Positions 1,844 through 62,576 of a stretch of DNA of 64,000 nucleotides are shown piece by piece (position 1 is the first letter of the stretch; each line of letters begins with the position of its first letter). A model generated the notes under the pieces. It was not told where the DNA came from, did not search any database, and saw only the letters and a program-made list of their open reading frames with translations. The position numbers and the translations under genes are program-made. Source of the DNA: Moniliella sp. 'wahieum' (taxonomy: Eukaryota); the NCBI GenBank assembly GCA_003971905.1, contig RSEE01000006.1:1054001-1118000 (forward strand), given 5' to 3'.

Positions 1844-2406
1844 GGTGGGTGGGTGGTGGTGGAGGAGGAGGCGGGGCGAGCTGCTACGCGCGGCCAGCAA
1901 GGAGCACAGCACGCAACGCACGCAGGCCCAAGCGAGGCGCCCAGCAATGCATGTCACTTCTTCGTGCCACGTGATGCCGTGACGCGTGGCGGCCGTGCGC
2001 GCCACACTGGCCCGTGGGAGCACCCGGGGCAGGGGAGCGAGGAGCGCGCCGCGCCGCTGCGAGCCGTCGCTTATCCGTGTCCGATGCCTCCATCATCCAT
2101 TACGGATTACCCATTATCGATCATCGATTATCGCCGCGTCGCCAACCCTACGCACCCTACCCCCGGTCATCGACCACCTCCCCCCCCTCATCCACCCGCG
2201 CCCGTCTCTCCCCTCTCGGGACGAAATCGAGCAGAGTCGAGGACGACGATGGGACCGATGAGGACGCTGACGGTGGGCTATGTGCTGCCGCGGCCCCTCC
2301 CAAGTGTGCTAAGAGATGGTTTGCAGTCAAGTGACAGTCACTAGTCAGGGAGTCAGCTAGTCAGCCCTCAGGCCCCTGAGCCTCAGGCCACAGGCCAGTC
2401 AGGCAA

Positions 2407-2449
2407 TCGGATCCCCCTTCGGATCCCCCTCGGATCCCCACTCGGACCC
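2407..2449. repeat. Short tandem repeat TCGGATCCCC(C/A), 3-4 copies, upstream of the HSF gene
   Basis: tcggatccccct tcggatccccc tcggatccccac tcggaccc. Confidence 0.8.
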
Positions 2450-2639
2450 AACCCAGCCTTGCACGTCCTCCGGCCTCACATTCACACGGCCGACGCCCTC
2501 AGGCCTCGCATGCTCACATGTCACACACCGCACATGTCACACGCCGCCCCCCCGCTGGAGGTAATGCGGCCCGGCACGCCCCGGCCGCCGGTCCGCCCAG
2601 CCGAGGCGACGCGCCACAGCTGCCGCATTCCCATTCCCA

Positions 2640-5600
2640 CTCGCATTCACATTCATCCATCCCCCCCCGCCCGACACCGGCATAGTTGCCCGCCAGGCCG
2701 TACGCGCCGTTGCTCGCATACCCGTACCCCCCGTGCGGCAGCGGCACCGGCCCAACGTAGCTGTGGCTGTGGTGTGGCTGTGTCCGCTGTGGGCCGGGTG
2801 CGAGGGCGCGACGAGCGTGCCCGGGACAAGCGTGCCTGGTACGAGCACCATCCCCGTCGGCGCGACGCCGCGCTGGCGGTTGCGTTTGCGCTTGCGTTTG
2901 CGTTGGCACTTGCACTCGTGCCCGTCGGCGTGATAGATATGTGGCTCTGCACCGAATGGCCGTGGGAGGAGATGGAGGAAGGACGGGGGGACTGGGTTCG
3001 CGGGCGGGCGACGGGGCTGGAGCTGCGGACGCGGTACCCTTCGCCCGGCTGGCTCAGTAGACCCGAACCCGACGATCCTTGGCGGGCGGAACGACGGGCA
3101 TGGGGGGGTACATGTACCCCGTCCCGCCGCGCTCGACCGAGCCGGGGCCATTGCCATTGCCATTGCCATTGCCATTGCCGCCATTGCCGTTGCCGTTGCC
3201 TGCCTCCGGCCCCTGGGCAATCCCAGTCATGGAGGAAGACGAACGGAGTTGACGCAGGTTGGGCGAGGAGAGACCACCTGGTGCATGGTAACGATGCTGG
3301 CAGCCAAACTGGCGCCAGCACTGGGGGCCCGGCCGAAGAAGAGAAGGAGGGTGCCATGTCGGGGTGGCTGGGAGGGGCCAAGGAATGTCCGCCCCGGTCG
3401 ATTGCGACCCAGAGTGTGCATCGGCGGGAAAAGGGTGGGGAAGACAGGGCATAGCCGGTTTGGCCAGAAGGAACAAGAGGTGGGTACGTGGGTTGATTGT
3501 GTGGTTGGCTCGGGACAAGCGAACCGGTCGACTGGTGGCCGACAGAGCGCCCGTGTAGCTCCCCTCAGGCGAGGCAATCGTCTTGCCTCGTATCCTGCCC
3601 GCGTTCGAAACCGACCGTCCAAGACCAGCCCCGGGTGGCGGCAGGGCCAAAGTAGAGGAGGAAGCCATGGCCACATGGCAATGCCACCGGGAGCCAGATA
3701 CTTTTCGGCGCATTTACGCAACAAGTCGCGTGCACTGCCCGTGCCCGCTAGACTCAGCAGCTCGGCATCCTCCAACGGTGCCGTAAACTCCTTGGGGACA
3801 ACCCAGAACAGCTCTTGTTGTTGCAAAATGGTGAGCACCACATCGTTCGCCGGCAGCCGTCGAACGGTCCTCGGGCGCGTGGCAGAGCGCCGAGAGTACA
3901 ACAGATTGGGTCCCAGTACCGTAGCCAAATTGATCAAATCCATCCGCGAGCCCGATTCGCCATCAATCTTTTCGAAATTGGCCACCCACTTGATGAACGT
4001 AAACAGCTCTTCCATCGTGTCCCGGTGCGAGACAGGGAGGAGTAAGCTCACATACGCAGGGCCCGGATTCGCTCTTGACGGTTTTCCATCTCTTGCGCGG
4101 CCATGTAGAGCGGGTAGAGTCGGAACGTGAGCAACGGATCCGGCAGCTCACGCAGGAATCGCTTCAAGAGTGCTGCCAGCTGGACAACGTTGTCGTCGAG
4201 CATCGAGGACTTAAACGAGCCCCCCCGGTCCACTAGATCAGCAACCTCCTTCAGTTTACGAATGTTGCCGTTTTTACGGAAGATGCCCTCCACACTCGGG
4301 TCTGTCATAGTACACCATTGGTCAGCCAATCGGATCCGACCCATCAAAAAGAAGAGGACCACGTACCCAAATAACGCATCGCGACCATCAGTTCATCCAG
4401 CAACGTGGGGACCTTGAGGTTAACTTGAGTTGACGTCGACAAATCTCCGTGCCATGGTTGGTAATGAGCGTCGAGAGAGGTACGCCAAAGATGGCCCCAC
4501 CACCGCGCTTGTGGGTTGCTTTGGGCTTCTGGAAAAACTTGCCCCAAAAGTTGCCTTTGCGTGGCTCGGACGAATCCAGCAAAAGTCCTCTGAACCCAAG
4601 AACTCCTCTACGTTGACCTGCGCCCGCAGTTCGGGCGTGCACACACCGCTCGGGAACGATTCCTGCCCACTCGTCTTTTCCCCGGCAGGCCAGTCCAGCT
4701 TGGGATCCGCCCCGTCGCCAGAGAATGACTTGGCGAGTTTGCCCGTGGCGCGAGGGAAACGCCCGTGTCGGTAAGAAGGCAAGCAAGGGCCATGCACTTG
4801 ACGACCAACCGCTGCTCCGAAGAGAGCGCGGCAATGGCATATTCCCATCTTGTTCCGAAACCACATCCAGCTGGTTCGTCACATCGTCCAAATTCATCGG
4901 TGGCTCGGGTGGCTCGATCCCAATAGGATCCCCCATATGTCATCTTGGATCTGCACTTGCGTCGCGCGGCCCCAGCCGGGTGCATGGACTGTGCCTCCAT
5001 CGTGGGGGGCGGGGGAGGACCTTTTCGGTTCGATCGGTCGAGTAGGAACGATCGCCCATCCCCATTCCCGAGCCCGGAGACACGCTCCTTCGTCCCATAC
5101 CCGCACCAGGAGGGGAAAGCAGCTTCTCTCTGCCCTGGGCCGAGGGATTCGGGGACCGGTTTTGGCCAGGTGGAATAGGTTGGGAGAAGTAATCTCCACC
5201 AGCACCGGCCATCCCTGTAGAAGAGGGTTGAGGGCTGGGAAAGGCTTGTGGCGTTCCGGTTGCCACCCCCGTGGTTTTACCCGTGGGGCCCCCGATAACC
5301 GTGGAAATGTGAGGCACCTTGGCCTTCGAGTCGACCTTGCGATCCAGCGAGAGGTTCGAGCGGGCCGTGCGCCGGCGCACGTGGCCCTCCATGGAATTGA
5401 TTGATGTTGCACTTGTCGCAGTGGCTGATCGAGTCAACCCCCCTGTGTCCGGTGCAAGCAGCTGCTCACCTGTTGGCTGATGGGCTCCAACTTCTACTGC
5501 AGCTGGCTGGCAGCGGATCTGGGGTCAGTCAAAGAAGCGGAAGCCGGAGGCCAGTAGATCATTGCACGCCGTTCAGCTGTAAAAACAGACGTGTCAGGGC

Positions 5601-8988: not shown

Positions 8989-11563
8989 GGCGCGGGAGGA
9001 AGGCAGGGAGCAGGAGCGCAAGGGTGAATGCGCCGGGGGCCAGGCGGCTGCGGCAGCGACGGCAGCGGCGGCAGGACGAAGCGGCTGGGCGGGAGCAGCA
9101 GAGCGGTAGCGGAAGCAGCACCAGAGCCAGAGCCAGAGCCAGAACCAAACCCAAACCCAGCACCAGCACCAGCACCAGCAGCGAGAGTGCGGATGAGAGG
9201 ATGGCAACGATGACGATGACGATGGCGGCGGCGGCGACGACAAGGTTGGCGAGGCTGCGTGGCTCGGCGCCGGCATCGCGCTCGGGCACCAGAGCAGAGG
9301 CCAGCACACCCCGCCGACGCTGGGCACACACGGCGCCGTGCTGCCCCGGAGCGCGCAGCGGCAGCTCAGCGTCCGCAGCGTGAGCGCCCTGAGCGCCCCT
9401 CTGGCGCCCCAGGCCTCCCTGCAGCGGCCCAGCCGAGGGGCGCAGGCCCACAGGCGAGCAAGGCGGAAGCACGCACGCTGATCACGCATGGCGCTTCCCC
9501 TGCATCTGGCACCCGCACTCGCTCGCACCCGTCGCTCGGGGAACGATCGATGATGATGCACGCCATATCACTCATCCACCTCTGCCGCAGCAGGGGGGCA
9601 GCCACCGCCTCGCCAGAGTCCTAGTGCCCCAGCAAACCGTCCCAGCCGCCGTTGGCTGCCCGCGCTCACTCAGCCTTGCTCAGCCGGAGCGCTGAGCCTC
9701 AGCTCAACTCAACCTTGAAGCTCTTGAAGCTTGAAGCTTGACGCTTGACGCTTCCAGCGCTGCCAGTACCTAGCAGTGCCTCTCCAGGACCCAGTGCGCC
9801 TCTCCGTCTACCGCCCCGTGCGCTTGTCCAACCTACAGCGTGGCCAGCGGAAGCGCCGCAGGGCGGAGCTGCCGCCTCCCGCCCTGCCGCTTTGCCCCGC
9901 CCCCCTACGCCGGCACGAGGCAGCCACCCGGTGCACGCCCGTCCGCCCCCAGTGCCCAAGTGCCCACCGGTGCACGGCGACGGTGTGGCTGCGCAACCCA
10001 GCGCAACCCCCCCTCTCAGATGCCCACGCGTCGGATGCCCGCCGCCTGCCGCGCATACGCCTGCCTGCAAGCGCCTGCAAGCTGCAAGGCCTGCATCGGC
10101 TAGGATCTAGCATGCGCCTGCCACAGCAGCTGCTCCCTGCAGCTCCCCCACCCAGCGCCGGGGCTGTGTCGGGGCAGGGCGCATGCACGGTGCATGGTGC
10201 ATGATGCATGATGAATGATCGCCACTGGGCCTCGTGCTGGCCGGTGGGGCGCTGCGATTGAATGCTGCTAGTGCAGCAGAACGCGCCTGCCGCTGCTATG
10301 GCGGGCATCATGTGCATCATGCATCATCGATCATCTAGCACCGGTGATGACCACTGTGCTTGTGGGGTGGGGGGGTGGTGCCTTGGGGCCTGCCTGGCTT
10401 GCGGCCGCAGCTGCGGCTGCTGCTGTTCTGTGATGGATCCGGCTCATCGATCATCTGCCCGTAGATCGTGCGCGGATCGTGGGGCACCCCAGGAGCTCCG
10501 CTACCCACTCTGAGATCTGACAGGGAAACAGGCTCGGATCGACGTGCGTCCCCTTGGCCAACGACCGGTAGGCGCGGGGCAGGCAAGTACAGCGGCCGCG
10601 TGCTGGAATCAGGACTCAGTCGGGGTACTCCGTCATCGATCATCCTTCTTCAACGTTCCACCTCTCGCCCCTGCCTCTCTCTCGGTTCACAGCGAGCAGT
10701 CTCCCGAGGGGACTAGCGTCGCTCGCCGAAGAGTGGCCTGCACAACAAAGCCTAGTAACCCATCTGTGCAACCGCCTTGGTGGCTTGCCGGGCGCCGTCG
10801 ATCTCATCCTCAATATCCATCTCGTCCTGTCGGGGCGGAAGTATCAAGGCACAACAGAGACGGAGTAATAAGTAGAAGCGCTGGATAGGAAAATGCGTAG
10901 GCAATGTATATCAGCCCAGCCCCCACGGAGGATCGGCGTCGCCTGGCATAGCCGAGGGGAAACGGGGAAGGATGGTATGAACGATGTTAACTGTTGCGTC
11001 CACCGCATCAGCACTGGGCGGTGACAGGTGAGATCTGAGCGGGGGAACGGTTGGTACATCTGTCGAATGGAGAATGCACATAAGCTGGCAGAGAAGCTGA
11101 TCAAGATGGTGCAATGGAATATGTGGGTAGGACTACAGTGCAAAAAAGGATAGAAATAGAACAGACAGAGGACAAGCCTGCCGATCGGTCGGCAGCTACA
11201 AGTGTGCTGGGGCCTTGTGGAGAATCGGCAGGGGTTTTTTTCGCGACCCCGCCCCTACTTGAGCCTGAGCCTGAGCCTGAGTCATCGGCCCACAACAACC
11301 CACAACCGCCTTGTGTGGGTCCCCGTTCCTAGCGGGAAGATAGAGGGGAACTCAGCCCAGGGAGGCCAAGTAGAGAACGCTGGTCGGACGGCGGAATGCA
11401 TGTGATGCAAAAACGATGGATGGCCCTTGGGCGTCTAGCAAGCAGTAAATTGGAGAGAAGCACCGGCTGCCCTGTTCCGGCCCGAGGCAGGGTGCAGTAT
11501 ATACCGACTCCCCACAGGCGCCGGAATAACGCGCAACGTGGGAAGCTCCTCAGGCCTCGGGAC

Positions 11564-12718
11564 TCAACGGTTCTGGTGAGCTCGTTGGTTGAGGCCAAAG
11601 CGGAAGCCTTCGTAGCACTGCAGATCGAACAGAGAAAAGGGGCACAAAAGGGGGAGGAGGGGTTAGCAAGATCAGATAACAGCAAGTGACATCGGGAAGA
11701 TGCACTATCATCCATGACGATATCACGCGCGGTCCAGTCCACGGCAGGGGGGCCAAGGGAACCAGCCAAGGGGGGGACATGGGACACGTACCAGCCAGCA
11801 AAGCGCATTGGAAGGCATGAACGTCAGCACGCGCGGGGTCAGTCCTCGAGCAAATCCCTTCAATCCATCGCGCGCATTGATGAGCCGGAACGCCTGCATC
11901 ATTCCCGAGGCACGGCGAATGTCGGGATCGGTGGATGTGCCCCGGGTTTGGAGCAACGTCTTGGCCACATCCAGAGGCGTGGTGAGCGCGGCAGCTACCC
12001 CGCCAGCAAACGCGCCCGACATGGCATGCGTCATCGGCGAGTAGGTACCGGTGGGATTGAGCACTTTCTTGGCCGACTCGTACGCAGAGAATTGGATCGC
12101 AGTAAATGGAACGGTCATGGTGAGGGTGGTGGGGTAGGACACGTAAAACGCGCGCACACCCTCCTTGGCGTAGATGGCGCTTGCACACGCCAGAATGGTT
12201 CGGTAGGTAGAGCCGTGCATTTGCATACGCTGCTTGATCACTGGAAAGACACGACAAAAGCGTTAGCGGTGTGGGTCTGGCCTCTCGGGAGTCAGCAGCG
12301 TACCATCAAACGGATTCATAAACGCGTCCGACACAATCGTGGCCGATGCGCCGGCGACAGCGGTAGACGCAAGATGAATGCCATCTTGGTTGCCGCCCGT
12401 CGCCTCCTTGACGGCTTCGTACGTGCCAAAGTAAAGGGCGTGGGCGGGGCCAGCACCGAGGATGACGCTCGACACACCCCGCCACAGGGTTCGAGCCCCC
12501 TCGAGCGTGGAGATGCGGGTGAACGCCTCCCCTATGCCGGAATAGGTCGCAGCAGGGGACGCTGCAATGACCTGCATACGAGTGCGAACCAAGTCGACCG
12601 GAAACATGCATGCGTGCTCAGCAATGCCCGCTGCGGCACCAGCGATCATGTTGATGTGGTAGGGAACATGGTCTCCCAGCCCCTCGTAGTCGACCTCAGT
12701 CTCCGAGAGGACAGACAT
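11564..12718 (-). CDS. MRS3: Mitochondrial iron carrier (mitoferrin, MRS3/MRS4 family), 3 exons
   Basis: EVDYEGL..NMIAGAAAGIAEHACMFPVDLVRTRMQV; LWRGVSSVILGAGPAHALYFGTYE; FYVSYPTTLTMTVPFTAIQFSAYE; TTPLDVAKTLLQTRG. Introns about 12242-12303 and 11618-11791. Last exon reads CYEGFRFGLNQRAHQNR*. Confidence 0.95.
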
Positions 12719-17217: not shown

Positions 17218-18572
17218 ATGGAGTCGAAAAGGTGTTAGGATGGATCGAAGGCGGGATGGTGGTGGTCCAGACGATGGAGTAAAAAGAAAAATAAGGCAGG
17301 CGGAGCCGAGAATAGGGCGAAAACAAAAGACCGACTGCAACACTACAGTGAACTCTGGAACAGGAGAGCGGAGCGGTGGGACACTCGGCAGAAAGCGCTG
17401 ACGCTGAGAGTACGTGAATACTGAAGATATCCCTGCTGTTTGATAAATCACCCCACCACACTGCTGAGGGGAAGATGCGGATGAGTTGGGTGAAATATGA
17501 GAGCTCGCTCTGAGTCTGAGATCTGAGGATCTGAGAAGCTGCGATATCCTTTGCTCTTGAAGCTAGCTAGCTAGCTTGAAGCCTGGCTTGAAGCTTGTAC
17601 AAACAGTTCGTCGGCTCACACTACATCAGGAGTGACTTTTGCATTGCCTTGCCTTACCGGCTTAGCGGTTCCCATCATCGACATCATCGATCATCGACCA
17701 TCAATATTCAATCATCAACATCAATCGAACGCTTTGACACTCGTCTGCGGAGGGGCGTCAGCGTTAGCGCCGTTACGCGTTACGCGTTACACGTTAACGT
17801 TTAACGCTTGTAGTCTTGGCGTTGCCTCAGGCCCCCAGGGTCTCAGGCCTCGTGCGTCATGTGGCGTGGCCGGTTGGAGGCGCCGATGGATGATGCCTGT
17901 GCGCTTGAAGCTTGAAGTTTGAAGCTTGAATTCAAGCTGGAAGCTGGACAGCATGGGCCAGGCCACAGAGCACAGCCTCCGACTCTGCCCGACGATGCGT
18001 CTAATGTGGGCGCGCAAGGGATGGTGAGCTGATATAGAAACGGGGCGCTGCCTCTGATCTGCTCCCAACCAGGCGAGACCAAGAGTAGCCCCACCGTGCA
18101 AGGCGCAGCGCTACAAGTCTGTACACAGGTCTGTACAGGTCGGTACCCCACAGTCCGTACGGCGCCGGCCTCCTCCGTCTCAGGAGGCAGAGAGGGGGGC
18201 TAGCCCAAGGCTGCCCAAGGGCCGGACGCGCACCACCAGCACGCTGTCCGATGCGCCACCGCGTCATGACGCGCAGGACGCCCCGCCCGACGCCTGTCCA
18301 TCCCGGCGCCAATGCCCGAGGGAGAGAGTCGCATGTTCTTGCCAGACGGCAGAATGACAGGGCACATGTGACACTGCCTCAGCCTCCTCCTGGGCCCTGT
18401 GCGACACGTGCTGCCACATCACGTGATGCATGGCAGCCGCTGTGCACCGCCCAGCGACCAGCACGTGACCCTATTGGCAGCCGCACTGGGCACCCACCAG
18501 GGCTACTTTGTTTTTTCTTCGCCCTGCGACATCCGACAACATTGGGCGCGACCACCGCCCCTGTGCCGGTCC

Positions 18573-24074: not shown

Positions 24075-26000
24075 GGCGGTGGAGGTGGGGAGGTGGTGGG
24101 GCGGTTGGTGGTGAAGCAGAAATCTCCTGGCGCGCGCAGACACGGCACAGCCGTCGATCCCGGCGGCTTTTATTACGGGCGTTGGAGCAGGGTGGAACTG
24201 CAGCGCAGAGTGGAGACCACGTGGGGCCGGCCGGGGCACCAGACGGCAGGCGGATTAGTGATGTCTTTTTTTCGTGGCCAGTGGGTGACCAGTGACCGGT
24301 GACCGGGCCAGAGGGGCCAGCCCCGCACAGCACGGCACGGCTGTGGACGCTCTTGGTTCGAACAGAATCGCCGCCCCGTCCCGCCGGGAATGCACCCCGG
24401 CGCGCCGGCAGCCTGGCGCCAGTGTGCCCCGCGCTTGCCTGCCCCAACCGAACAGACGCGTGGCTCAGACTGCCCCCCCGCCGCGTGCAGGCACACCTCG
24501 GTCGCTGTAGGCACAATGGCCTCAAAGAAGCCCCCTGGGCCCGCGACTCCTAACCACCACCCTCTTCCGGCACTGGGGAGACGGGTTTCCAGAACCCAGA
24601 GGTCGCTGACTAGCTGACTGCTGACGTGCTGATGCGTCACCGTAACGGCGCTGATGCTGCGCTGAGTACTGAGTGCCTGAGTGCGGAGCGCGGACTCCTC
24701 TCCCCTCGAGCCTCCTAGGGCCTCCACAGGCCGCCCAGCCACCCCGGTCCCCGCGCATTGTTGACGCTGTCACCGCATCACCAGTCGCTACAGGAACGTG
24801 GCCGCGACGCTATGCCCGCCACGCAGGCCGTTGAACCCCCCCCCGTCCGTTCCAGTACACATGGACCCCTCGGCCCAAGGCTGCTTGCAACGTTTTCTTG
24901 CTCTTTTTGAGGCGTCTCGTTCTTCCTCCCCGCACACTCGAAGGCCCCACGACCCCACATTCTCGTTCTCCAGATGCAACAGCAGGCAACGACACAACCA
25001 CAGAAGGCAGTCCATGGTATCATCGGCATCCTATAGCCTATTGATTGTCTTCAAAAGAGGTCTAGCCCATTGTTCCTCCAAGCCTTGTGTCGGGCTTTTG
25101 GTAATCGGTGAGGGCTAAAAAGCGTGCTGAGTACGCCCTCAGCCCAAGCGATACCACAGGCGATACCAGATGTTCAGTCAGCGCTCAGCCTGCTCCAGCC
25201 TCGCTCTCACCGAGTCCATCGCACTAGCGCCACTGAGCAAGTGTAAGTGCGACGTATGAGTTCACGCTGTACGTCACTAGTTCACTAGTCACTCTAGTCA
25301 CTAGTCACTGCCAGAGGCTTTTCAGGGACCGCAGCGATAGCTCCTTTGGCGTGTATCAGTGTGGAATTGGAAACACTCGACTGCCTCGCTAGGTACGACA
25401 AAGCAGTCTCCACGCTCAACGTACGTTCAACATCCAACGTTCAACCAGAGGCCCTGACCCCAAAGCAAACAAAGAAACTACAGAGGTGCCCCACGGCCGC
25501 AGGCTAGCACGACCGGCGTATACCATGCATACGAAAACATGGTACGACTGGCCTCCCATTGCAAAACGTGGTGCAAAACGTGGTATTCATATATCGTTTG
25601 CTGGCCACCGGTAACCGGTAATAGATGGTAGCCGACCTAACTTTGGCTTGCCAACCCGAGTTGGCCGGGGAATGGAGGGAAAGGGAATTGGGGGGTTGGT
25701 GCGAATGTCCGCTTGGGCCGCTGCCATGAGGTGCCTGAGGGACGCTCAGGGCAGGAGTGTAGCAAAGTAGACAAATGTGTTGCAGGACTGGACTTTTGCG
25801 CTCAGTCATGAATTCGGTCTTCGTCCAGGAGGGATAGAAGGCAGTCCAGAGAGAGCTGGGCACAGTGGAGACCAGATGTATGGGGAAAGACCATCGCCGT
25901 ACATCACTCGCTTGGGGTCTGAAAACCCAAGGCAGGAGAGGGAGTTGCCAGGCCAGTACTTTGGTTTGCACTCAGGCCCTCAAGTCTCGGATCTCAAGTC

Positions 26001-42638: not shown

Positions 42639-43343
42639 CCACCAAGAAAGCCCCTTTGCATCACCATCGTGCCACAGGACACACTGGCCCCTCCTCAGCT
42701 CAGGCAGAGTTCACGAGGTCTCTTTGCCCGGCCCTCCCCTTCTGTCTGCTGCCACACGCCAACGACGCGATTGGAATCAAGGGCCCAATGTTCCAATGCA
42801 GGCCGGGGGTGACCGGTGAAGCTTCATGAGGTTGAAGCTAGGCTAGTAGTGAGCAGATGTGCGGGGCCAAATCCGCGGAATCAGTTGCCTCGTCTCTTCC
42901 CGACGATCTCCTCTCTCTCCTCCAGTCTCCTGCGGATGATCGATGAGGTCCAAGACCTAGGATGCCAGTGTTCCATGTGCCCATGGCGAGGCATCGTTCC
43001 CAACACTGGCCGGGTGCGTGCCGGGCGGAGGGCGTGTGGATCCACGCGAGGGATCCAGGCACGGCGCCCAGGCGGGTTAGGTAGGTGGACCCTAGGAGGA
43101 AGGAGACAAGCGTGGAGAGAGGCGTGGTTACGTAATCCAACTCGTGTGCGCCCGACACGCCACACTGCCCTTCTGCTTGCGCGGCCCCCTGCAAACCAAG
43201 GCCAAGAACCCGCCCGAGTGCCACTGGCGCCGACAGTAAAGGCCGCGCATTCTTCTGCACCACCATCCTCGCTTCTGCCCTCGGCCCTCGGCCCGCCTCC
43301 CCATCCCCCACCCGTTCGTCTCTCCTTTCCAGTTCTCTCCAAC

Positions 43344-44552: not shown

Positions 44553-44638
44553 GGTTCCATATTGTAGTTGGTTAGCAAGTAGGATTCTGACACTTTCGTC
44601 GTATTCCTGAAACCTGGGTTCGAATCCCAGTGGGACCT
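44553..44638 (+). tRNA. tRNA-Gln(CTG) with 13-nt intron (44591-44603)
   Basis: Acceptor stem GGTTCCA/TGGGACC; anticodon arm TAGGA-TTCTGA|T-TCCTG; T arm CTGGG-TTCGAAT-CCCAG; downstream TTTTT Pol III terminator. Confidence 0.93.
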
Positions 44639-45792
44639 ACTTTTTGGGATTTTGGCCTTTATTCTTCATCGCATGCGTTTCCGCACCCGCTCCTGAGGCA
44701 ACTGGCGGCGGCGACAGGACCAGTACCTAGTATGAGTGGCTCTGGCAAACTAGGCGACAGGCCAGGCAGGCCCACGTGGGCGTCCCACGCAAGATTTGGA
44801 CTAGGATCGGGAGGTGGCGGCACCGCAACCTTCTGGAGGGGGCGGGACGGGATGCGTCGCTGGGGTTGGCCACTGCTGTCGCCGCCACGCCTCCCGCCGT
44901 GGTCCGGGGGCAGGTGAGCGCACGCGACCGGCCGGCGGAGGGACTAGGGAGCATTGAACATTGCACATTGCACGCTGCACATTGAACATTGAACACGTGC
45001 GCATTGGTATGGGCACGCGGCACGCGACCCCGCGGTGGCTTGTCGATCGTGCGGGGGTACCCGGAACCCGCCCACACGACGCCATCCCATGTCGCCCGAC
45101 CCGACTCGGCTTGTGCTGAGTCCTGGCGGCGCTGGGACGCAGCATGGCCTGCCTCAGGCTCAGGCCCCATCGAATCCCTCATCGACCTCATCGATCATCG
45201 CAGGCCGACGCTGTCTGGGAGCATCCGCCGCGGGCGGCTGGGCTTCCGACCTCAGAGCGCCTCAGCGCCAGTGACTAGTGACAAGTGCCTAGCCACGGGC
45301 TGCGGCAGCTGGGAGGCGTCTGTACGGCAGGCATCAGGCGCCTGCCTGGGGCCTGAGGCTCGTGTGATCACACTTGGGACAATGCGCAAGACGGGGAAAG
45401 TGGCTGGGCGAAAGAGGGCGGGGGAGCAGGATGGGGTACGGGGACTCTGTGTGGTATATGTGCTGCGTGTAGGCGCTTGTCGACCTCTGCTTCCCCCCGT
45501 GGCGCACGTGGCATGCCCTCCCCGCCAACTGCTCGCGACGCACAGACCTCCGCGCCCGACCCTCTGATCTGAGCTTCTGGAGCCGTCTGTAACCCTGCGC
45601 CCTGCTGGGGCCGGTCTGAATCAGCCACGAGTAGGAGCGCTCGGGAGATGGTGCCGGGCCAAAGAAAAGCGGCTCGGACGAGCGCAGCTTCAATCCTGTC
45701 CTCTCCTACCCTCTCAACCACTCTCCATCCTCGCCCCCGCTTTCTGCTTCTCCCCCATCACCCTCCCAACTCCAATCGGCGTTGCTTCCAGT

Positions 45793-51841: not shown

Positions 51842-53650
51842 TCAAAAGACAGATGGCGGAGGAAAGGGGGGGGGGGTAAGGGCGTGGGTAGACATGGGGG
51901 TGCGAGGCACAGAAACTAGGATACCGACTGGCGGGGGAAGACGAACGCGTCCAGTTCCTGTTGCGCGGCGGTGCGGCGGCGTGTTGTGTAGGTGCCCCTG
52001 GTGCGGAGAGGAGTGGGAGTAGGAGCAAGGGGGGAGCGGGTTAGGATTGGAGTCAGGCACAGAGGTAGAGGAAAGGACGCGGGGCAAGACCGTGGAAGTC
52101 ATGGTCGTAGTAGAACTTTGGCTGGACAGGTCGGGGCCTTGAGACTGGGACTGGGATTGGGATTGGGATTGGGATTGGGATTGGGATTGGGATTGGGATT
52201 GGGATTGGGATTGGGATTGGGATTGGGATTGGGATTGGGACTGGGACTGGGGATCGGGAGGGGAGAGAGGAGCTGTGGTCTCGTCTGCTGCACCCTCACC
52301 CGGTCCCTCGTCCGCCTCGTTCCCCTCTGGCACCACATCCGGATGCTCTTCGATCCATTCATCCCCTTCCTCGGGGGTGAGGTGGCGCGAGGTTCGGTTG
52401 AGCCCCGAGCTAAGCCGCGGCTTGGACCGAGCGGAGCGGTTGGATCGGGTAGATGTGCGGCGCGCCAGGAAGGTGGCACCTCCTTTGCCAGATGCACTGG
52501 GCACTCTTCGAACGGAGCGGCTGGAGGACCGCGAAAGCGGGCGGACGGGGGCGGACTTGTCCCGAGATTGAGATACGGGAGCCGGCGTGTCGGAGGACAG
52601 GGTGGGCAAGGGAAGCGGTTCACTGACCGGACTGGAGAGGAAGTTGGGATGAAGGGTCTTGCGCTTGCTCCACAACTTGGCCAAACCATTCGGCTTGCCC
52701 TTGCCCTTACCTTTGCCCTTGCCCGTGCCCTTGCCGGTGGATGCAGCCTCTTGGTCCGGGGATGGGCTCAGAATGGCCGACTTGGCCCCCGCCGAGGTGG
52801 GAAGGGGAGGGACGGGGGATGGGAAATTTGCGGGGCTTTGGCTGTGTTGATTGCTGGGCTTGCTTTTGCTGCTTGGCCTGCTTGGCATCATGCGCGCGAA
52901 CCATACGATCGACCTTGTGGAGGTCCTTGAGCATCGCTGCCTCAGCTTTGAGCTTGGCCTTTTCCGCTTTGGCAGCCTGCTTGGACGCTTGCACGCCGCC
53001 CGACGTTCCGCCAAGCTCCGTCTGCGGGTGCGCAGCTTGCTCGTCGCCTGGGGCTTCTCTCTCGGTGCCCGCAGAGGCAGAGACGCGCATAGGCTCAGTC
53101 TGGCGCGAAGCCACCGCAGGCGACGAGACGACCGAAGTCGAACCACGCTCCTCTTCAACCACAGGCGCAGGGCAGGCAACCTCGGCGTCTGACGTGCCCG
53201 CCATGTTGTCGACTGAGCTCGAGTGGGAATTGGCCATCCAGGAAGCATGAGTTGTCCCCGATCCTGAACCCGAGCCTGACCCGAGCCTGATCCGGACCCC
53301 GACCCGGACCCAGAGGCAAAGCGAGAAGCAAGGGGGCGCGAGGAGGCCGGACGGGCGGAGCAGGCGGGTGGTCTGACGTCTCTGGGCTGGGCTGGGACAC
53401 GGGCGCGGTTGCCGCCCCAGGACAAGCAGCAACCATTTCGGGTGAGAGGGGAGATGAGACCGCGCGTGTTCGTGTTCTTCCCTTCGGGGCCGAGAGCGGG
53501 ATCTGGCGCGGCAGTGTCACCGGGGGCGGCCAGTCTGCCCCGGCTTCGGCATGGCCAGACTTGCGGAGTGGAAGAAGGATCCAATACTGCAGGTGGGGGG
53601 TCGCGCTGGCGCGGGGCAGGCGCAGTCGGGGTGCTGGCCCCCTCCCTCAT
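51842..53650 (-). CDS. Hypothetical low-complexity protein (may be the 3' part of a gene starting at about 55323)
   Basis: Coding-like segments QASKQAAKAEKAKLKAEAAMLKDLHKVDRMVRAHD and GLAKLWSKRKTL..EEGDEWIEEHPDV; in-frame (QS)n tract. Confidence 0.5.
   Translation of the reverse strand: MREGASTPTAPAPRQRDPPPAVLDPSSTPQVWPCRSRGRLAAPGDTAAPDPALGPEGKNTNTRGLISPLTRNGCCLSWGGNRARVPAQPRDVRPPACSARPASSRPLASRFASGSGSGSGSGSGQARVQDRGQLMLPGWPIPTRAQSTTWRARQTPRLPALRLWLKRSVVRLRSSRRLRWLRARLSLCASLPLRAPREKPQATSKLRTRRRSLAERRAACKRPSRLPKRKRPSSKLRQRCSRTSTRSIVWFARMMPSRPSSKSKPSNQHSQSPANFPSPVPPLPTSAGAKSAILSPSPDQEAASTGKGTGKGKGKGKGKPNGLAKLWSKRKTLHPNFLSSPVSEPLPLPTLSSDTPAPVSQSRDKSAPVRPLSRSSSRSVRRVPSASGKGGATFLARRTSTRSNRSARSKPRLSSGLNRTSRHLTPEEGDEWIEEHPDVVPEGNEADEGPGEGAADETTAPLSPPDPQSQSQSQSQSQSQSQSQSQSQSQSQSQSQSQSQSQSQGPDLSSQSSTTTMTSTVLPRVLSSTSVPDSNPNPLPPCSYSHSSPHQGHLHNTPPHRRATGTGRVRLPPPVGILVSVPRTPMSTHALTPPPFPPPSVF
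52145..52251. repeat. (TTGGGA)14 flanked by CTGGGA units; encodes (Gln-Ser)n on the minus strand
   Basis: 14 perfect TTGGGA units at 52157-52240. Confidence 0.95.
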
Positions 53651-55323: not shown

Positions 55324-56096
55324 GACGCACCAGGGGGCGGAGGCAAAAGAAGGTGGGGGAGAAGGGCGACGGGCGGGGGAGGGGGGGAGGGGGGGTGGTG
55401 GTGGCGAGGATGGAGGAGGTGGTGGTGCGGGTGCGGCGGGGTAAGCAGCAGCTGGCACGCCGAACACTCCAGCTACGCCCAGGGCCCCAGGGCGCACCTG
55501 CGCCGACACAGGCGCTGCGCCGGGCAGCACGCCAGCCACATGCGGGCAGCGCGGAGGCGGTGTGGGCGCACACTGGGGGCTGCGGGGGCACTGGCCGATC
55601 ATCGATCACATCCCGGGGTGCTGCTGCCGCAGAGTCGTCGTCGTCTGGCGCCAGCACTGGCGCCCAGCGTGTGGCGCACTGCGTTCTATCCTCAACGCGT
55701 GCGTCAATTGAACATTCAACCACTGCATGCTCCGCTCCGGACAGCCCCACGCACCACGCCGCCCTGGGCCGCACAACCCTAGTGCTCCAACCAGGCGGTG
55801 GGGGTGCGGATCCGCTCGCATGGCACACGAGCAGCAACCACCCCAGCTCACTCAGCTCAGTCAGCCCGTCCATCCAGTAGTCGCCCCTCGACACCCACCA
55901 CCATAGGCAGATGTCGACGCCCAACACCACACCCATCGTGTCTACACGCTCCGCGGGCTAAATTCAGAGGCCTAAGCTGTGTATGCTTCATATGCAGCCC
56001 AAGAGGATGAACAGGGCAGGGAGAAACAGTAACATGGCGTGCGAAAGGAAAGGAAGGGATGGAATAGGGGGCCAAATTGGCCACGCGCAGACTGGC

Positions 56097-59000
56097 TTAG
56101 AGGTCGTCCAGCTCGTCGGCCGAGTCGTACGTGCCAGCCTTCTTCTTGGCCAGACGGTCCTTCTTGGTCTTGCGCGCCTCCTTGGAGCTGAGCGCCTTCT
56201 TCTTCTTGACCACCTCAATCTTGTTGCCCATCGCATCAAACTTCTCCTCCTCCTCGTCCTTCTTCTTGTCGATCCGCGGGCCCGAGCCCTGGCCCTCGAC
56301 CCAGTTGTGGCCCGACGCACGCAGCGCAGCACACCGCCGTCCATCGCCCAGACCTCCGAGCACACCCCCTCCGACACCTCGATCGAGTGGGTGATCAGGC
56401 ACACACCACCGTCGAATACCTTGAGCGCGTTAATGAGCGCAGCAAGCGACTCACGGTCCAAGAAGTTGGAAGGCTCATCCAGAATGATAATGTGAGGACG
56501 ACGCCAGGTAGCCCGCCAGGACCACCTTGACCTTTTGGCCACCGGACAGACCGCGCATCGTGTTGTGCGACGTAAACTCGCGCTCCAGACCAAAGTCCTC
56601 AAAGTGCTGTCAATCTCCTTGCGGACCAGCGGGCGGTTCATACCGAGGCGCTGCGCCTCCTTCGAGTCAAACTCGAGCACCTTCTTCTCAACCCACCACG
56701 CTTGATCACTCGTCACGCGGAATCCACACATTGTCGGCCGATGACATGTTCTTGAACACCTCGTATTGGAACGAGTTCTTCAACTTCTTACGACCGACAA
56801 TCGACTCAATCAGGCGCTTGACACCCTCAACAATGTACACCTCACCCTGCTTCTGCATCTTCTTCTCCTCCTCCGAGAGCTCCTTGGACGAGTTCTTGAG
56901 GAACTCTTCCAGGTCCTCACCGGTCTGGTACCGCCACCGCATGCATGTACTCCAGAGGCGTCTTGTCCAGGTGCTGGTCATATGGTGAAGGCGTGTTGGG
57001 CAACATAGCCAATGACCAAGTTGGGGTTCTCACACCTCACCCGTCGCAGCCTCCGTGTCACCACCATGAGCTTGACCAGCGTCGACTTGCCCGAACCGTT
57101 GGGGCCGAGAATAGCCACCCGGACGAGAGCGAGACCTGCATTGAGATACCGAGCAGCTGGGGCTTGGGCGTGCCGGGGTACTGGAACGTCACGTCACGCA
57201 TCTTGAGCAGACTTTTCCTTCGTCTTGACACCGTCCAGCAGCGGGGGCTCGGGGAACTTGAACGAGTAGTCCTCGCCCGAGTTGATCTCGACGTACGACC
57301 GCGCCTCGGGGACACGCTTGACAAACGCGTCGAGGTTGCCGGGATAGCGCTTGATCTTGAAGCGGTTGAGATGGAGAATGTCCGTGGTGACATTGTTGAG
57401 GAACTTGGAGTCGTGCGAGACAATGATCGAGGTGGTCTGGGTGAGGCTGTTGAGGTAGTCGGTGATCCACTTGACGTTGACCACGTCCAAGTGGTTCGTC
57501 GGCTCGTCGAGCAGCAGAATGTCAGCCTTGAAGAGGATAGCACGCGCCAGCGCCAGCTTCATCTTCCAACCACCCGACAAACCGGCCACAGGCGAGTCCT
57601 GGCGCTCCTGGTCAAAGCCCATCTCGTTGAGCGTCTTGGACGCCTCCTCCTTGGTGATCTGTAGGCGCTGGTCGGCAACAATGAAATCGACCACCGAGAT
57701 GGTACCCTCGGAACCGTCAAGGTCGTGCTCGACGTACCACGTCTTGACCTCCTCGGGCGAGGGGAAGCCCTCCACCTGGCCGTTCTGGATGGCGCGCATC
57801 AGCGTCGACTTTCCGGAACCGTTGCGGCCCAGCAGACCGTAGCGGTGGCCGCGCTTCAGACGAGGGTGGCCGTGTTGAGCAGAATCTTGGCACCGTAGGC
57901 AAGCGAGAACTGGCAGTTCAAAGGTCGACACCCTCCTCCTCATCGTCAAAGACCTCAACCTCGCCGCCGAACGACTTGGCGAGAGCCTTGAGGAGCGACA
58001 TGATAATCTCGTGCGACGTCGTCTTGGTAGCCTTCTTGTCGAGTTGGATGTACGAGTGAGGGCTGCCTCCCATCGGACGGCTCAAACTCACGTGCATTGG
58101 TCAGGTTGGCCGTGAGGGTGGCAACGTAGGCAATCAGTGCCTTGTCCGAGTCGAGCTTCTTCTCGGCAAACTGCTCCGTGACCAACTTGAGCACGGTCGG
58201 GAAGTCCACATCCTCCAGCGGCTTGATGTCCGAGCCGTCGCCCGAAACGTGGCCAATGTCACGCAACGTCTTGATGGCGCGCTGCACGACGGAGCGAGCC
58301 TCGGGGTCAGCCATCGTCGACTCGACCTTAATCAAGCCGGGGAGAAGTTGGGCAAGAAGGGGCGGACGTACGCTCGTTGTCGACGAGCTTGGCCATGTTG
58401 TCAATGATCACGGCCACCTTACGCTTGATGGGCGTAGGGCGCTCGTTCAACCCACGCTGGAAGAGGCGCCATGAGAGCAAGCGTGGGCGAGTCGACCTCC
58501 TGGACAAAGGTGGTGGCCGAAAGCACGCCAATGGTCTTTGGCACCTCCTCGACGGGGAAGATGAGCGACTTGATCAAGCAGGGATGAAACGCTCAATGTC
58601 CTTGTTGGAGATGAGCGAGCAAAGGTCCGTCAGCGCAGCGCGCGACGCCTTCTGCACGTCGGGCTTGGTGTCCCAAATGACCTCCGACATGACGGGGATA
58701 ATGTCGGGCATGGCGGCAGCAATGCGGTCCGGGCTCGACTTGACGAGCTGAAGGAGGACCTTGACGAGACCCGTCTTGACTTGCCACTTGCCAGCGGTGC
58801 GGATCTGGTCGAGAGACGTTCAGAGCCTGAGGAACGGCCCAGGAGCTGTGGACGGAGGAGAAGGCGATGAGGGCGTTGGTGGCCGCCTCGCGGACGGCCT
58901 TGTCCTTGTCGCCCATAGCGTCCACCAGCGCACGGTAGGTCGCCGGGAACATGTACACCTCCGCGTCCTTGCCTGCGCCATCGTCGCAGATGGCCTTGAC

Positions 59001-59164
59001 GAGAGCAGCGGCACCAGCACGCTTGGCCGCGTCCTTCTTGTCGGCCAGGCCCTTCTGGACCAGGTCAGGGAGACCAGCCAGCGCCTTGGGGCCCTCGGCC
59101 TTGGCGGCAGCGACGAGCGCCTGCACAGCAGACGAGTCGGAAAAGCGCCTCGTTGACGGACGAT
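56097..59164 (-). CDS. YEF3: Fungal translation elongation factor 3 (ABCF, HEAT domain plus two ABC domains), many frameshifts
   Basis: HEAT region [115 protein letters not shown]. Confidence 0.97.
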
Positions 59165-60760
59165 GATGGTCTGGGCAGAGGAGGTCAGCGCGGGAGGCGA
59201 AGGAGGGGCTGGGGGCATGCACGTACAGACGGTACGAACGGCTCCAACTGACGGAGCAGCGGTGGTGGCGGGAAGAGCAACGGTGGCAGCGACGCGGACA
59301 CTTTTATTCGTAACCTGCCGCAGCGGGGGGCAGACACTTGCGCGGTGCAGGGAGGGAAAAAAACCTCGGCGCCACCACACACTCGCCCCGTGCCGCCCCA
59401 CTTTCCACGGCCAATGTTCAATGTTCAGCCTGCAACATTTCACTTTCACGGCCCGCTTCGCCCGCCGCCGGCTTCCGCCCCAGCCGCCGGGACAGTGGGG
59501 CGCAGGCGCAGGCAAGGGCAGCCTCGTTTCGAGCATACTAGGGTGGCCTTAGATGGCCCTGTCGGCCGCAAGCTTGCACCGATCGCTGCCCCCCATCCAT
59601 CTCTGCCACCCGCACGTCCCTCCTCACGCTGGACCCATAGTTAGTGGCTGGATTGAACAGAAGCAGTAACCCTCCCAAGGTGGGCCTTATCCTGAGCAGC
59701 TGGGAAACGCACCCTGTTGTGCTTGTTGAAGTGGGAGCATCATGCAGTCAGGGTGCAAGAAAACTTGTTTCCACACCGCAACCATCCCCCGCGCCACGTG
59801 CAGCGTTGCGTCGTCCTTAACTGAGATGCGCCATACTCAGTCGCCAGCCGTAGACGACGAGAATGTCCCCCACATCGTCCTCGTCCCGGACCTCTCACCG
59901 GGAACCCAGCCCGGGTGTCTGGGTCACAGGGCAGCTTCGACCGTGGTGGAAACGTCATCGCTGTATCGACCACTACATTCAACAGATAGTCGGCCTTATC
60001 CTGGCACTCCGGTGGCCACCCTATTATACTCCCCCTTTACAGCTGCTTGCAGGACAAACCATGCGTCAAACCTGTAGATGACACCATGGCAAAGAGGTGC
60101 TAGCCTCACATGCCTTCGCCTCAACCACGGAAGCAAGGGACACAGGTGCAGTGAAAGTGGAGTTACTAGAGTTGGGTTAAGGCACGGGGGCTTCGCTGGA
60201 TTGACAGCATTACGTACCGCGAGAGCGGCGAAAGGCATGCTTGACATGGTGGGTTGGTACGGATGCAGAAAAGTACGAAGGCATCACAAACGATGGCAAA
60301 TATAAGCGCAGGCTTCGTGTGTGCAATCATTGATTCCTTGGTATCTATTATTGAAGCGAAGATGGAGACCATTGCAGCAATGACTTCGAGATGGCGTGCA
60401 CGGCTCGTACCCGCAGCTACGGCAACTTTGCACTTCGGGAGAAATTACGAGAGAGCGCACTCGAGCAACGAGCGCATCTCCACATCATGAGACGTTCATC
60501 CGTGTGTATATAATCCTCTACTATAGGCGCACTCATCGGTAACCGATTCGGACCCGAGTGACATGTGGTGCCAGAAACTCCTGACCTACTGTGAGGTTGC
60601 CATTGGGGCCTCTTTAGGAGGTGCACAAGCTGAAGGAAACGCCGCAGGTGAGCGAAGCGTCCCCTTTTGACGCTGTCTTTAAACTTTGTAGACGGCATGC
60701 TCTGGGGAAATAGGGGAAGCAACAGGCTGTGGGATGTAGTTGTGTGGCCCAATCAAAAAA

Positions 60761-61143: not shown

Positions 61144-61370
61144 TTAGACATCAGATCTCAGACATCAGATCTCAGATCTCAGATCTCAGACCGAGATCTC
61201 AGTCTCAGATGAATATACCCCTTTTTGCCTCCTGTGTCTTCAAGCTCCAATCGTCACATATGGACGTTTCAGGCCTATCAGGCCCAGGCCGGTCGGGTCC
61301 ATATCGCGTACCTTGTGCTTCAAGTCAAGCTTCAAACTTCAAGGTTCAAGGTTCAAGGTTCAAGGTTCAA
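61144..61370. repeat. 7-bp-period arrays (TCAGATC)n and (TCAAGGT/TCAAGCT)n
   Basis: TCAGATC TCAGACA TCAGATC x3 from 61151; TCAAGCT TCAAACT TCAAGGT x4 at 61325-61366. Confidence 0.9.
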
Positions 61371-62070
61371 AACGATATGCACGTTATGCAGTTACTATAG
61401 TTGCTAGGTTTGGCGTTCCTGCGGTTTTCAGAGACCCCATGAGGAGGGCCGCACGTTACGCGTTATGCGTCCCCCTGTCGGACGTTCCGCACCCGACTCA
61501 TGCATCCTGGCGGAGAGCAAAAGGGGTGAGCCGGTGAGGCCTGAGACCGGTGAGGTGCGTTGGAGAGCGTGTGCCCAGCCTCGCTCGCACCGGCACCAAG
61601 CAAAGGGCCACCCAAGGCCACGCACCCAAACAGGCCGGAGGGGGTTGAACACGTTGAACACGTTGAACGGTGAACGTTCGCTGATCGAGTGTGGAGATGG
61701 ATGGATTGATCGATCGCAGTCATCGCAGTCGCACCCCACACAGCCTTGGCCTATCGCAGAACAATAGGGGGCAATCGCACTGACCGTCCCTTGTTGCACG
61801 AGTCACGCGCCCCCCCCCCCCCCCCCCTGTTTATTGGCATCTCCTAGAGCAGCCTGCCGCTCGCCCTTCCCCTCTTCTCCTCCTCCACACCGACAGAGAT
61901 GCTCAACCTCCGGACCAAGACGGCGACACTGGGCTCCGGCTGAGCTGAGCGTCATCGTCAGGCTGAGCGCTGACTAGCTGGCTCCAAACAAATCGGCCTT
62001 GCTGTATGTACTGACGTTTACCGGAGTACTGACTCCGTCCTCCGTCCCAGTGTGGAAGACGATCATTAAT

Positions 62071-62112
62071 TCAGGCATCATGCATCATGCATCATGCATC
62101 ACTAGTCACTGA
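62071..62112. promoter_or_regulatory. Mixed TCA-N4 heptamer array, candidate cis element
   Basis: TCAGGCA TCATGCA TCATGCA TCATGCA TCACTAG TCACTGA upstream of a gene. The array is seen directly; regulatory function is inferred. Confidence 0.5.
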
Positions 62113-62576
62113 TTGTTGAGCGTTAAACGTTAAGTACGTTATAAGCATTGCGGATCACCGATGGTATCGTCGCTCATGCATCGTCAGGGCTTGAGGCGTC
62201 CGTTTGGGCTGCTCGTGGCGTCTGATATACATACCCCCGGCCTATCGCAACACCAGACCAGTGCCTCTCTGTGTGAGATCACTCGCAAACGTGCATACCT
62301 CGATAGTCGATAACCGCATCGCCAGAGTAATCCACCGTTCCTGGCACACCAGAATTCTTCGGGCAGCCCACCACCATCTGTCCCCCCTCCACGGCCATCG
62401 ACCAGCCATCTATCGATCCTCTGTTGGCCGCCGAGCCCCGCGCCCCACCACACCCCCCTGTTGTGGCTGTCTTATCCTCCGAAGTTCTCGCTGAGGCTGT
62501 GGGTGCACCCACCATCATCATATTGTTCTGCAGTATTACAAGTACCCGGCGTGTCACCTCAGCTCAGCACTCTGCC

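Follow-up and report, generated by a model that had tools for sequence, protein, structure and literature searches.

In a 64,000-bp window of contig RSEE01000006.1 of Moniliella sp. 'wahieum' (the whole stretch of DNA that was analysed; G+C 60.1%), the DNA upstream of genes carries short arrays in which T-N-A anchors, with any base at N, recur every 7 bp and enclose a 4-bp spacer that is often a perfect palindrome. We consider these arrays to be, with a probability of about 0.55, the scars of templated strand-switch micro-duplications that were later amplified by slippage, and not independently evolved sites of a DNA-binding factor. A first-pass annotation of the window had described the pattern as a TCA followed by a variable, mostly self-complementary tetramer in promoter DNA, and had offered two readings: a factor that recognizes TCA half-sites and the shape of the spacer, or a local templated mutational process combining slippage with strand switching. 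The second reading fits the anatomy of the tracts and is the best one; the first is not supported as the origin of the pattern.

Employing an order-3 Markov model (100 simulations) for expectation, we counted pairs of TCA or TGA at different spacings. TCA-N4-TCA occurred 59 times (10.6 expected, z 14.2) and TGA-N4-TGA 40 times (11.5 expected, z 8.7). The second-best spacer was 11 nt, equivalent to two units (33 versus 10.3 expected), and the inverted pairs stayed at chance (TCA-N4-TGA, 14 versus 10.5; TGA-N4-TCA, 7 versus 11.3). The autocorrelation of TCA peaked at lags 7 (5.5x), 14 (3.1x) and 21 (3.1x), and its lag-7 excess was the highest of any abundant word among the 64 trinucleotides. When the anchor was taken as T-N-A, identical anchors on the two sides of a 4-base spacer numbered 112 (23.6 expected), and in 64 of these pairs, hereafter called composites, the spacer was palindromic (1.7 expected). 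Between phased TCA or TGA, 57 of 99 spacers were palindromic, compared with 6.0% of all 4-mers and 157 of 2003 spacers over all 64 anchors. With the background taken from non-coding-called DNA alone (26,784 bp), 57 palindromic pairs were observed, where 0.60 were expected at order 3 and 3.85 at order 5. Palindromes in general showed no excess over expectation in the window, and a general palindrome excess was rejected as the cause on that ground. Exact two-copy period-7 loci numbered 38 (3.5 expected). Palindromic units were in excess at period 7 alone (55 versus 5.7; fraction 0.30 versus 0.09); at periods 5, 6 and 8-12, the palindromic fraction was at or below expectation, or came from just 3-6 loci. 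These results bear out the peak at spacer 4 and the composition-controlled excess of palindromic cores that the first-pass annotation had called for, and its count of at least nine different cores was right, since 15 of the 16 palindromic tetramers are used. We itemised 50 composite loci. Among the places listed earlier, the exceptions are 44955-44996 and 59410-59450 (both with the core ATGT/ACAT, non-palindromic), 61645-61735 (period 9) and 29617-29652 (inverted, not direct).

Composites were found with all four anchors (TCA 36, TGA 21, TTA 5, TAA 2), and other closing pairs were not enriched (G-N-C, 8 versus 7.5 expected; C-N-G, 6 versus 6.9; A-N-T, 1 versus 1.4). The TCA formerly taken as conserved is thus constant at T and A, and not at C, so that the anchor has to be written T-N-A, N being any base. 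The unit can equally be described as one free base added to a 6-bp palindrome, A-x-y-y'-x'-T (y'x' being the reverse complement of xy). Such a palindrome-plus-one rotation was present in 18 of the 38 exact two-copy period-7 loci; all 18 were of the form A....T, the extra base being C or G 15 times and T or A three times. We also scanned the window for a segment followed by its reverse complement, a gap and the segment again (S-S'-gap-S; |S| 2-5, gaps 0-4). A clear excess beyond a handful of cases occurred only at |S| = 3 and gap 1 (61 versus 17.9 expected), with S starting with A in 41 of the 61. Two further combinations, both of period 12, were also above expectation: |S| = 4 with gap 4 (8 versus 1.65) and |S| = 5 with gap 2 (3 versus 0.2).

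Genes were placed by a Pfam scan of all 456 stop-to-stop open reading frames (ORFs) of at least 80 aa in the window. A codon-based coding score was weak because of frameshifts in the assembly, and Pfam-anchored gene spans were therefore used in addition; the resulting gene map is approximate and covers one window of an indel-prone assembly. At a score threshold of 4, DNA called non-coding held 1.40 TCA/TGA composites per kb and DNA called coding 0.08 per kb (2 of the 57). One of the 64 composites lay within the Pfam-anchored gene spans (20,075 bp), and the other 63 lay either beyond the elongation factor 3 (EF3) gene or in gaps that border on one or more gene 5' ends. The three 3'-3' gaps (565, 588 and 1,664 bp) held none of the 64; at the density of the other gaps (1.55/kb), 4.4 would be expected, with a Poisson P(0) of 0.013 that ignores clustering and unannotated genes. 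By inspection, composites in several same-strand gaps crowd toward the 5' end of the downstream gene; in the gap 9568-11725, for example, 8 of 9 are in the half next to the LIM-RhoGAP start. Typically, 100-300 bp separate the beginning of an array from the first ORF piece downstream. These results support, within the limits of the Pfam-anchored gene map, both the promoter location and the unequal density in coding and intergenic DNA that had been proposed. No consistent orientation of the TCA strand relative to the downstream gene was seen when hit strands were read against the gene map (no computed test), and core identity did not cluster by region or promoter, that is, there were no promoter-specific 'dialects'. 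In a metagenome relative of the EF3 gene (L001; 77% identity, the single locus found), no composite was present in the 139 nt upstream of the start.

The two anchors of a pair carry a signature of copying. The free base N was the same in 64 palindromic pairs and different in about 6 (TCA..TGA 1, TGA..TCA 3, TCA..TTA 1, TTA..TCA 1; the self-complementary classes TCA..TGA and TGA..TCA were double-counted and are given halved). If N were free and independent, about one third of the pairs would share it (about 1:2 same to different, by arithmetic from trinucleotide counts). Isolated units were not over-represented to a comparable degree: TCA plus a palindromic tetramer plus T, with no phased neighbour, was barely enriched (34 versus 23.6 +/- 5.4), and the odd palindrome y'x'TNAxy with no adjoining half occurred 150 times (144.5 +/- 10.7 expected). 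Enrichment is a property of the composite and not of the single unit. The core dinucleotide xy of 56 loci was compared with the dinucleotides found after other T-N-A in non-coding DNA, and the two sets did not differ (chi-square 22.6, Monte-Carlo p 0.093), so that the sites appear to have pre-existed at random.

The ends of the tracts are asymmetric. In the four bases that follow the last TCA, the core was repeated in 78%, 71%, 32% and 24% of 41 chains, breaking off sharply after the second base; ahead of the first TCA, matches at positions -4 to -1 were seen in 29%, 29%, 43% and 52% of 42 chains. Among 38 TCA/TGA chains with palindromic terminal cores, the 2-nt extension was present on one side in 28, which gives the 12-nt arm-spacer-arm form, on both sides in 5, which gives two full units, and on neither side in 5; any extension was thus found in 33 chains (4.6 expected by chance). 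Left and right extensions were anti-correlated (Fisher p 0.014), a relation that decay of full two-unit arrays would not yield. A strand bias of the one-sided extension (19 versus 9) was not significant (p 0.087). The commonest maximal period-7 tract was exactly TCAxy-y'x'-TCAxy (13 of 46). In general form, the 12-mer TNAxy-y'x'-TNAxy is a 5-nt direct repeat whose two copies enclose its final dinucleotide in reverse-complement form; it may also be described as Axy, its reverse complement, one base and Axy again (direct-inverted-direct). The longest chains have 7 anchors. In-phase neighbours carry different palindromic cores in 8 of 47 cases (p 0.006), and in four neighbour pairs (GATC/GGCC, GTAC/GCGC, TGCA/CGCG and TGCA/TCGA) a symmetric double change was noted by inspection.

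We propose that these tracts arise from a copying error that inserts 7 nt at a pre-existing 5'-T-N-A-x-y-3'. At a first switch, the growing strand would copy 2-3 nt of reverse complement (y'x'T) from the strand of its own sense. At a second switch, it would return to the original template at the upstream T, using 1 nt of microhomology and sometimes more, and N-A-x-y would be copied again. The product would be the 12-mer TNAxy-y'x'-TNAxy, a net gain of 7 nt and in effect a 'micro inverted triplication' of Axy; the 7-bp period, the 6-bp palindrome A-xy-y'x'-T and another T-N-A of identical N would inherently come with this product. Its 5-nt repeat at 7-nt spacing could then be expanded by slippage or by microhomology-mediated tandem duplication (MTD) into arrays of 3-7 anchors, and a fresh event at the regenerated T-N-A would give in-phase neighbours with different cores. 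Scars of this kind would build up in gene-upstream non-coding DNA, probably tolerated there rather than selected. From such an event would follow the palindrome with an arbitrary core, the shared N, the 7-bp step and the sharp right boundary, as well as the partial microhomology on the left, the background-like xy and the lack of an excess of single units. The tracts do have a direct-inverted-direct order with microhomology at the junctions; the T shared at the second junction is intrinsic to T-N-A. What the window shows is the pattern with its exclusivity, the signature of copying, the anatomy of the 12-mer and the location; both the two switches and the tolerance of the scars are inferred.

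Several points weigh against this origin. A generic template-switch error is expected to vary in size and closing pair, and only T..A closure, |S| = 3, gap 1 and period 7 are enriched; inverted triplication with segments of varied size and no anchor was not what we found, as the excess is confined to segments of 3 nt that begin with A. The model was derived from the tracts that it explains, so its fit is no independent test. The in-phase neighbours with different palindromic cores count on the same side, as do the four symmetric double changes, in which symmetry could have been maintained by selection. The empty 3'-3' gaps are not predicted by mere tolerance in non-coding DNA. These gaps and the symmetric double changes leave room for selection, which may act on the arrays after their birth.

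The exclusive T..A closure and the 3 + 1 geometry suggest a specific enzyme or lesion. Templated micro-duplication might, in an extended form that we put forward tentatively and with the odds clearly against it, be the work of a lineage-specific, enzyme-driven machine that makes 7-nt strand-symmetric insertions at gene-upstream T-N-A and so continually generates promoter sequence and tunes it by slippage. Candidates would be a T-N-A-targeting DDE nuclease (a domesticated or active transposase of the Harbinger/Tc4 type) or a repair polymerase whose strand-switch step is fixed at 3 nt.

Alternatively, the arrays could be functional promoter elements: a protein or the chromatin machinery would read T-N-A at 7-bp spacing together with the dyad-symmetric spacer, and selection would keep arrays that duplication may create, their function accounting for how common they are near 5' ends. 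The restriction of 63 of the 64 composites to 5'-end gaps or the DNA beyond EF3, with none in the 3'-3' gaps, agrees with such a function, and a fixed geometry with an exclusive T..A closing pair is what a protein would impose. The 57 of 99 phased spacers that remain perfect palindromes, and the 8 of 47 in-phase neighbours whose palindromes differ yet are perfect, point the same way. We nevertheless regard this explanation as unlikely. It does not account for the same-N rule (64 versus about 6 pairs), for single sites that lack over-representation (34 versus 23.6; 150 versus 144.5) and a defined base preference, or for a core dinucleotide drawn from the background; the one-sided 12-mer, with its 2-nt extension, has no place in a binding-site model. 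As read by inspection, the arrays have no consistent orientation relative to genes, and there are no promoter-specific cores. Moreover, no single protein can require complementarity of two positions without specifying the bases. Because of the same-N rule and the one-sided tract, a purely functional reading is insufficient. The same two features, together with the barely enriched isolated units and the background-like xy, tell against a factor reading TCA half-sites and spacer shape as the origin.

We rate as improbable that the tracts are excision footprints of DNA transposons that duplicate T-N-A (Harbinger- or Tc4-like), in which a 3-bp target duplication and the 2 nt at the end of each inverted terminal repeat would leave TNA-xy-y'x'-TNA and a 7-bp step, in parallel to the Tc1 footprint TA-CA-TG-TA. 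The preference of mPing for gene 5' flanks would agree with this origin, and its precise excision would speak against it. Harbinger elements classically duplicate T-N-A, with any N, at their target (PMC12477816), and Tc4 duplicates the TNA of CTNAG (10.1101/2023.11.06.565293). Footprints of this type would account for the 3 + 4 geometry, the same N, the palindromy, the enrichment of composites and the repeated in-phase events, and direct T-N-A repeats around a short palindromic remnant are indeed abundant (64 versus 1.7, with all four N). However, 15 of 16 cores are used in background-like proportions (p 0.09) rather than the few that element termini would supply, and x and y recur in the host DNA directly after the second TNA (in 78% and 71% of the chains), a feature that a footprint does not predict. 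No transposase domain was found in the 456 ORFs of the 64-kb window scanned against Pfam, and the best inverted-repeat pair in the window (35303/35508) has no T-N-A duplication at its ends. Given the background-like cores, the repeated flanks xy and the lack of a transposase or a T-N-A-ended element in the window, footprints are therefore rated below micro-duplication. The inverted pair itself (35303-35331 and 35508-35536; 29 nt, 86% complementary, 176 nt apart) resembles a miniature inverted-repeat transposable element in size and shows no clear target duplication.

Slippage of microsatellites could favour units that fold into hairpins (a TCA triloop on a 4-5-bp stem) and so escape flap removal and mismatch repair. 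Hairpin-forming repeats are prone to expansion; full two-unit tracts fold with a TCA triloop, and 9 of 22 predicted loops were TCA. The predicted DNA hairpin energies of 35 tracts were negligible, however (mean -0.72 kcal/mol versus -0.47 for shuffles; 13 of 35 unstructured), and on these values hairpin stability was rejected as the cause. Most loci are just 1.7 units long; palindromy was therefore present at birth and not gained by expansion. The more stable G.C-closed palindromes were not enriched, and copy numbers were, by eye, alike in palindromic and other exact period-7 loci. We consider this explanation very improbable. A plain microsatellite fails too, as most tracts are incomplete duplications. 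Error-prone assembly can practically be dismissed as the source: indel errors are present, as in the EF3 gene and in the contigs of another organism described below, but random indels cannot write an intergenic T-N-A and palindrome grammar at 37-fold enrichment and would at most blur some spacings.

The quality of the assembly was assessed on EF3 (- strand, 56133-59135). Aligned to the related metagenome EF3 ORF, it matched end to end with at least 6 frame changes and no gaps: residues 111-1008 of L001 corresponded to 58813-56133 of the window, gap-free, in the frame order -1, -2, -1, -3, -1, -3, and an additional N-terminal piece was found in frame -3. Because EF3 is essential, we read the frame changes as assembly errors rather than introns; from the alignment, they look like single-base errors and not like introns or a pseudogene. 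Insertions of 1-2 bases were found at several of the frame-change places in contigs of another organism. Contigs from that one sequencing run reach EF3 only, 78 of 146 pieces being less than 90% alike, and leave the intergenic arrays uncovered. The fragmentation of ORFs across the window probably stems from the same indel errors. As the ORF breaks in EF3, the one gene checked, are frameshifts, introns were unusable as a non-coding control. The two mitochondrial-carrier ORF pieces, 11726-12262 and 12266-12832 (- strand), are in the same frame with a single stop codon between them, which could represent a short intron, a sequencing error or a true stop.

The Pfam domains found in the 456 ORFs were those of HSF, a LIM-RhoGAP gene, a mitochondrial carrier, a class-IV aminotransferase (Aminotran_4), ribulose-phosphate epimerase, Gpr1/Fun34, Snf7, methionyl-tRNA synthetase, DHBP synthase, Usp, Pho88, an HLH protein, a fatty-acid hydroxylase, mitochondrial S21 and EF3. 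The closest named relatives of the Pho88 ORF were those of Tilletiaria anomala (68% identity), Ceraceosorus (64%) and Ustilago (60%), with further sequences at 77-84%. The presence of EF3 and Pho88 indicates a fungus, and the Pho88 relatives place the source organism within Ustilaginomycotina or close to it. The tRNA-Gln gene listed in the table, given its length, probably contains an intron.

Table. Composite loci and the tRNA gene in the window. Cores are given as the tetramer between anchors.
Position	Sequence, or anchor and core	Strand	Context
2338-2347	TCACTAGTCA	+	gap between the HSF ORF piece and the LIM-RhoGAP 3' end
2514-2523	TCACATGTCA	+	same gap
9725-9748	4-anchor array, TGAAGCT TGAAGCT TGACGCT TGA (+ strand reading)	-	~160 bp upstream of LIM-RhoGAP ORFs
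10202-10218	TGA; TGCA		gap of the 9725 array (six composites, 10202..11038)
10317-10333	TCA; TGCA then TCGA, in phase		same gap
10444-10453, 10633-10642	TCATCGATCA		same gap
10511-10520, 11022-11038	TGAGATCTGA		same gap
12938-12947	TCATCGATCA	+	~100-150 bp upstream of mitochondrial-carrier ORF
12970-12979	TCAAGCTTCA	+	~100-150 bp upstream of mitochondrial-carrier ORF
14767-14776	TGACATGTGA, single	-	gap between mitochondrial-carrier and class-IV aminotransferase genes
16679-16688	TGAAGCTTGA	-	the composite within a Pfam-anchored gene span (Aminotran_4)
17517-17526	GATC		dense cluster 17517..17929 in the gap upstream of the aminotransferase gene; other border, + strand ORF at 18089
17684-17693	TCGA		same cluster
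17701-17717	ATAT		same cluster
17773-17803	TTA; CGCG CGCG CACG ACGT		same cluster, array
17906-17929	TGA; AGCT AGTT AGCT		same cluster, array
24286-24302	CCGG		upstream of Gpr1/Fun34 gene (six composites, 24286..25621)
24663-24672	GTAC		same region
25178-25187	GCGC		same region
25282-25291, 25298-25307	CTAG		same region
25612-25621	TAA; CCGG		same region
27332-27341	TCAGGCCTCA	+	
27426-27435	TTACGCGTTA	+	
33441-33450	TCA; GGCC	+	upstream of DHBP-synthase gene (five loci)
33844-33867	TCA; CGCG CGCA TGCA	+	same region
34154-34163	TCA; TGCA	+	same region
35261-35277	TCA; GATC then GGCC, in phase	+	same region
35410-35419	TCA; TGCA	+	same region
39985-39994	CATG		upstream of ORFs ending in Usp domain
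40255-40264	ACGT		same region
40474-40483	GGCC		same region
42810..42946	TGACCGGTGA, TGATCGATGA	-	between Usp and Pho88 genes
44552-44640	tRNA-Gln (anticodon CTG), 89 nt	+	between Pho88 and HLH genes
45188..45281	TCATCGATCA, TGACTAGTGA		between tRNA-Gln and HLH gene
49413-49422, 49852-49861	TGAAGCTTGA		upstream of fatty-acid hydroxylase gene
49713-49729	TCA; TTAA then AGCT		same region
51342-51351	TCAAATTTCA	+	~90 bp upstream of mitochondrial S21 ORF
55599-55608	TCATCGATCA	+	unannotated stretch between S21 and EF3 genes
61151-61188	6 anchors; GATC		richest region 61151..62133, ~2-3 kb upstream of EF3 start and also upstream of + strand ORFs from 62314
61325-61369	7 anchors; AGCT/AGGT		same region
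61456-61465	TTA; CGCG		same region
61535-61544	GGCC		same region
61964-61973	GCGC		same region
62071-62108	6 anchors; TGCA x3 then CTAG, in phase		same region
62124-62133	TAA; ACGT		same region

Two long perfect palindromes, of 18 bp (AAGCTAGCTAGCTAGCTT, 17560-17577) and 16 bp (AGCTTGAATTCAAGCT, 17923-17938), lie at junctions of oppositely oriented arrays. Other repeats in the window include two tandem copies of a 42-bp unit with 97% identity (39193-39276), lying in an AT-richer stretch without annotation, 17.7 copies of (TGGGAT) (52146-52251) within a long Pro-rich ORF on the - strand, and an (AGC)n tract of about 277 bp (19643-19919) within a + strand ORF without an assigned name. A run of about 20 C is present in the gap upstream of EF3 (61808-61828) and a run of 15 G at 51754-51768; the lengths of both are unreliable because the assembly carries indel errors.

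If templated micro-duplication is the origin, a visible share of a fungal lineage's regulatory DNA owes its form to a single copying error, small and very specific. Its defined signature (T-N-A, a 3-nt inversion and a 7-nt step) would join the few known templated mutational processes and give a direct handle on the enzyme responsible. It would also explain the 'restriction-site-like' heptamers that motif finders pick up in these promoters. Should an enzyme-driven machine be at work, the arrays would amount to a new mutational signature and would at the same time be a built-in source of regulatory variation; should they instead prove conserved and protein-bound, they would be a promoter code of an undescribed kind. 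In the open-access literature searched by sequence strings and topic (including Ustilago/Ustilaginomycotina heptamers, microsatellites, core promoters and templated insertions), the pattern was not described; the two-unit 14-mers had no match there, and the 12-mers matched only primers carrying restriction sites.

Among known systems, tandem repeats in yeast promoters, reportedly treated by Vinces et al. in 2009, are alike in being short, unstable and concentrated upstream of genes; they differ from the arrays in being rich in AT and in lacking palindromy. Footprints of Tc1/mariner-type and T-N-A-targeting transposons share with the arrays a T-N-A duplication around a palindromic remnant, a fixed length step and a position near genes. 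They differ in that the cores here vary as the background does, the flanks repeat xy and no elements were found in the window; in core variety and flanks, the pattern does not match a footprint.

MTD is an origin of tandem repeats (PMC13167724; 10.64898/2026.02.28.708716) that was first described in S. pombe (PMC8639346). It acts on short segments flanked by microhomology arms, is depleted in coding DNA and expands from one copy to two and more, all of which resembles the arrays. The 5-nt arms at 7-nt spacing would be ideal substrates, the longer arrays look like products of MTD or slippage, and, as in tandem repeats generally, they are head-to-tail direct copies of one unit. Unlike the pattern here, MTD has no inverted component, palindromic unit, T-N-A requirement or preferred length, and neither 'palindrom' nor 'hairpin' occurs in the searched text of the preprint 10.64898/2026.02.28.708716. 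Most tracts in the window, moreover, stop at the 12-nt arm-spacer-arm stage and are not completed duplications.

Small inverted triplications (DUP-INV-DUP) result from replication errors and have been linked to FEN1/rad27 (PMC13334657). They share with our tracts the direct-inverted-direct order, the short junction microhomology and the logic of a replicative template switch; their segments average 148/160/148 bp with a 30-bp spacer, in contrast to 3 nt and a 1-nt spacer here. The tracts also differ in their fixed sequence anchor and in a recurrence of about one per kb of intergenic DNA. In template-switch mutation at quasi-palindromes (PMC7202029, PMC7954356, PMC8604942), a single multi-nucleotide event likewise creates or completes short inverted repeats by strand switching. 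Such mutation differs in perfecting existing imperfect repeats and predicts TCA-core-TGA, a class at chance here (14 versus 10.5; 7 versus 11.3); in our tracts, a direct repeat is created too. By analogy with these systems, the pattern works as if a template-switch micro-duplication had been followed by MTD or slippage, and it departs from a generic template-switch event by its fixed anchor and geometry.

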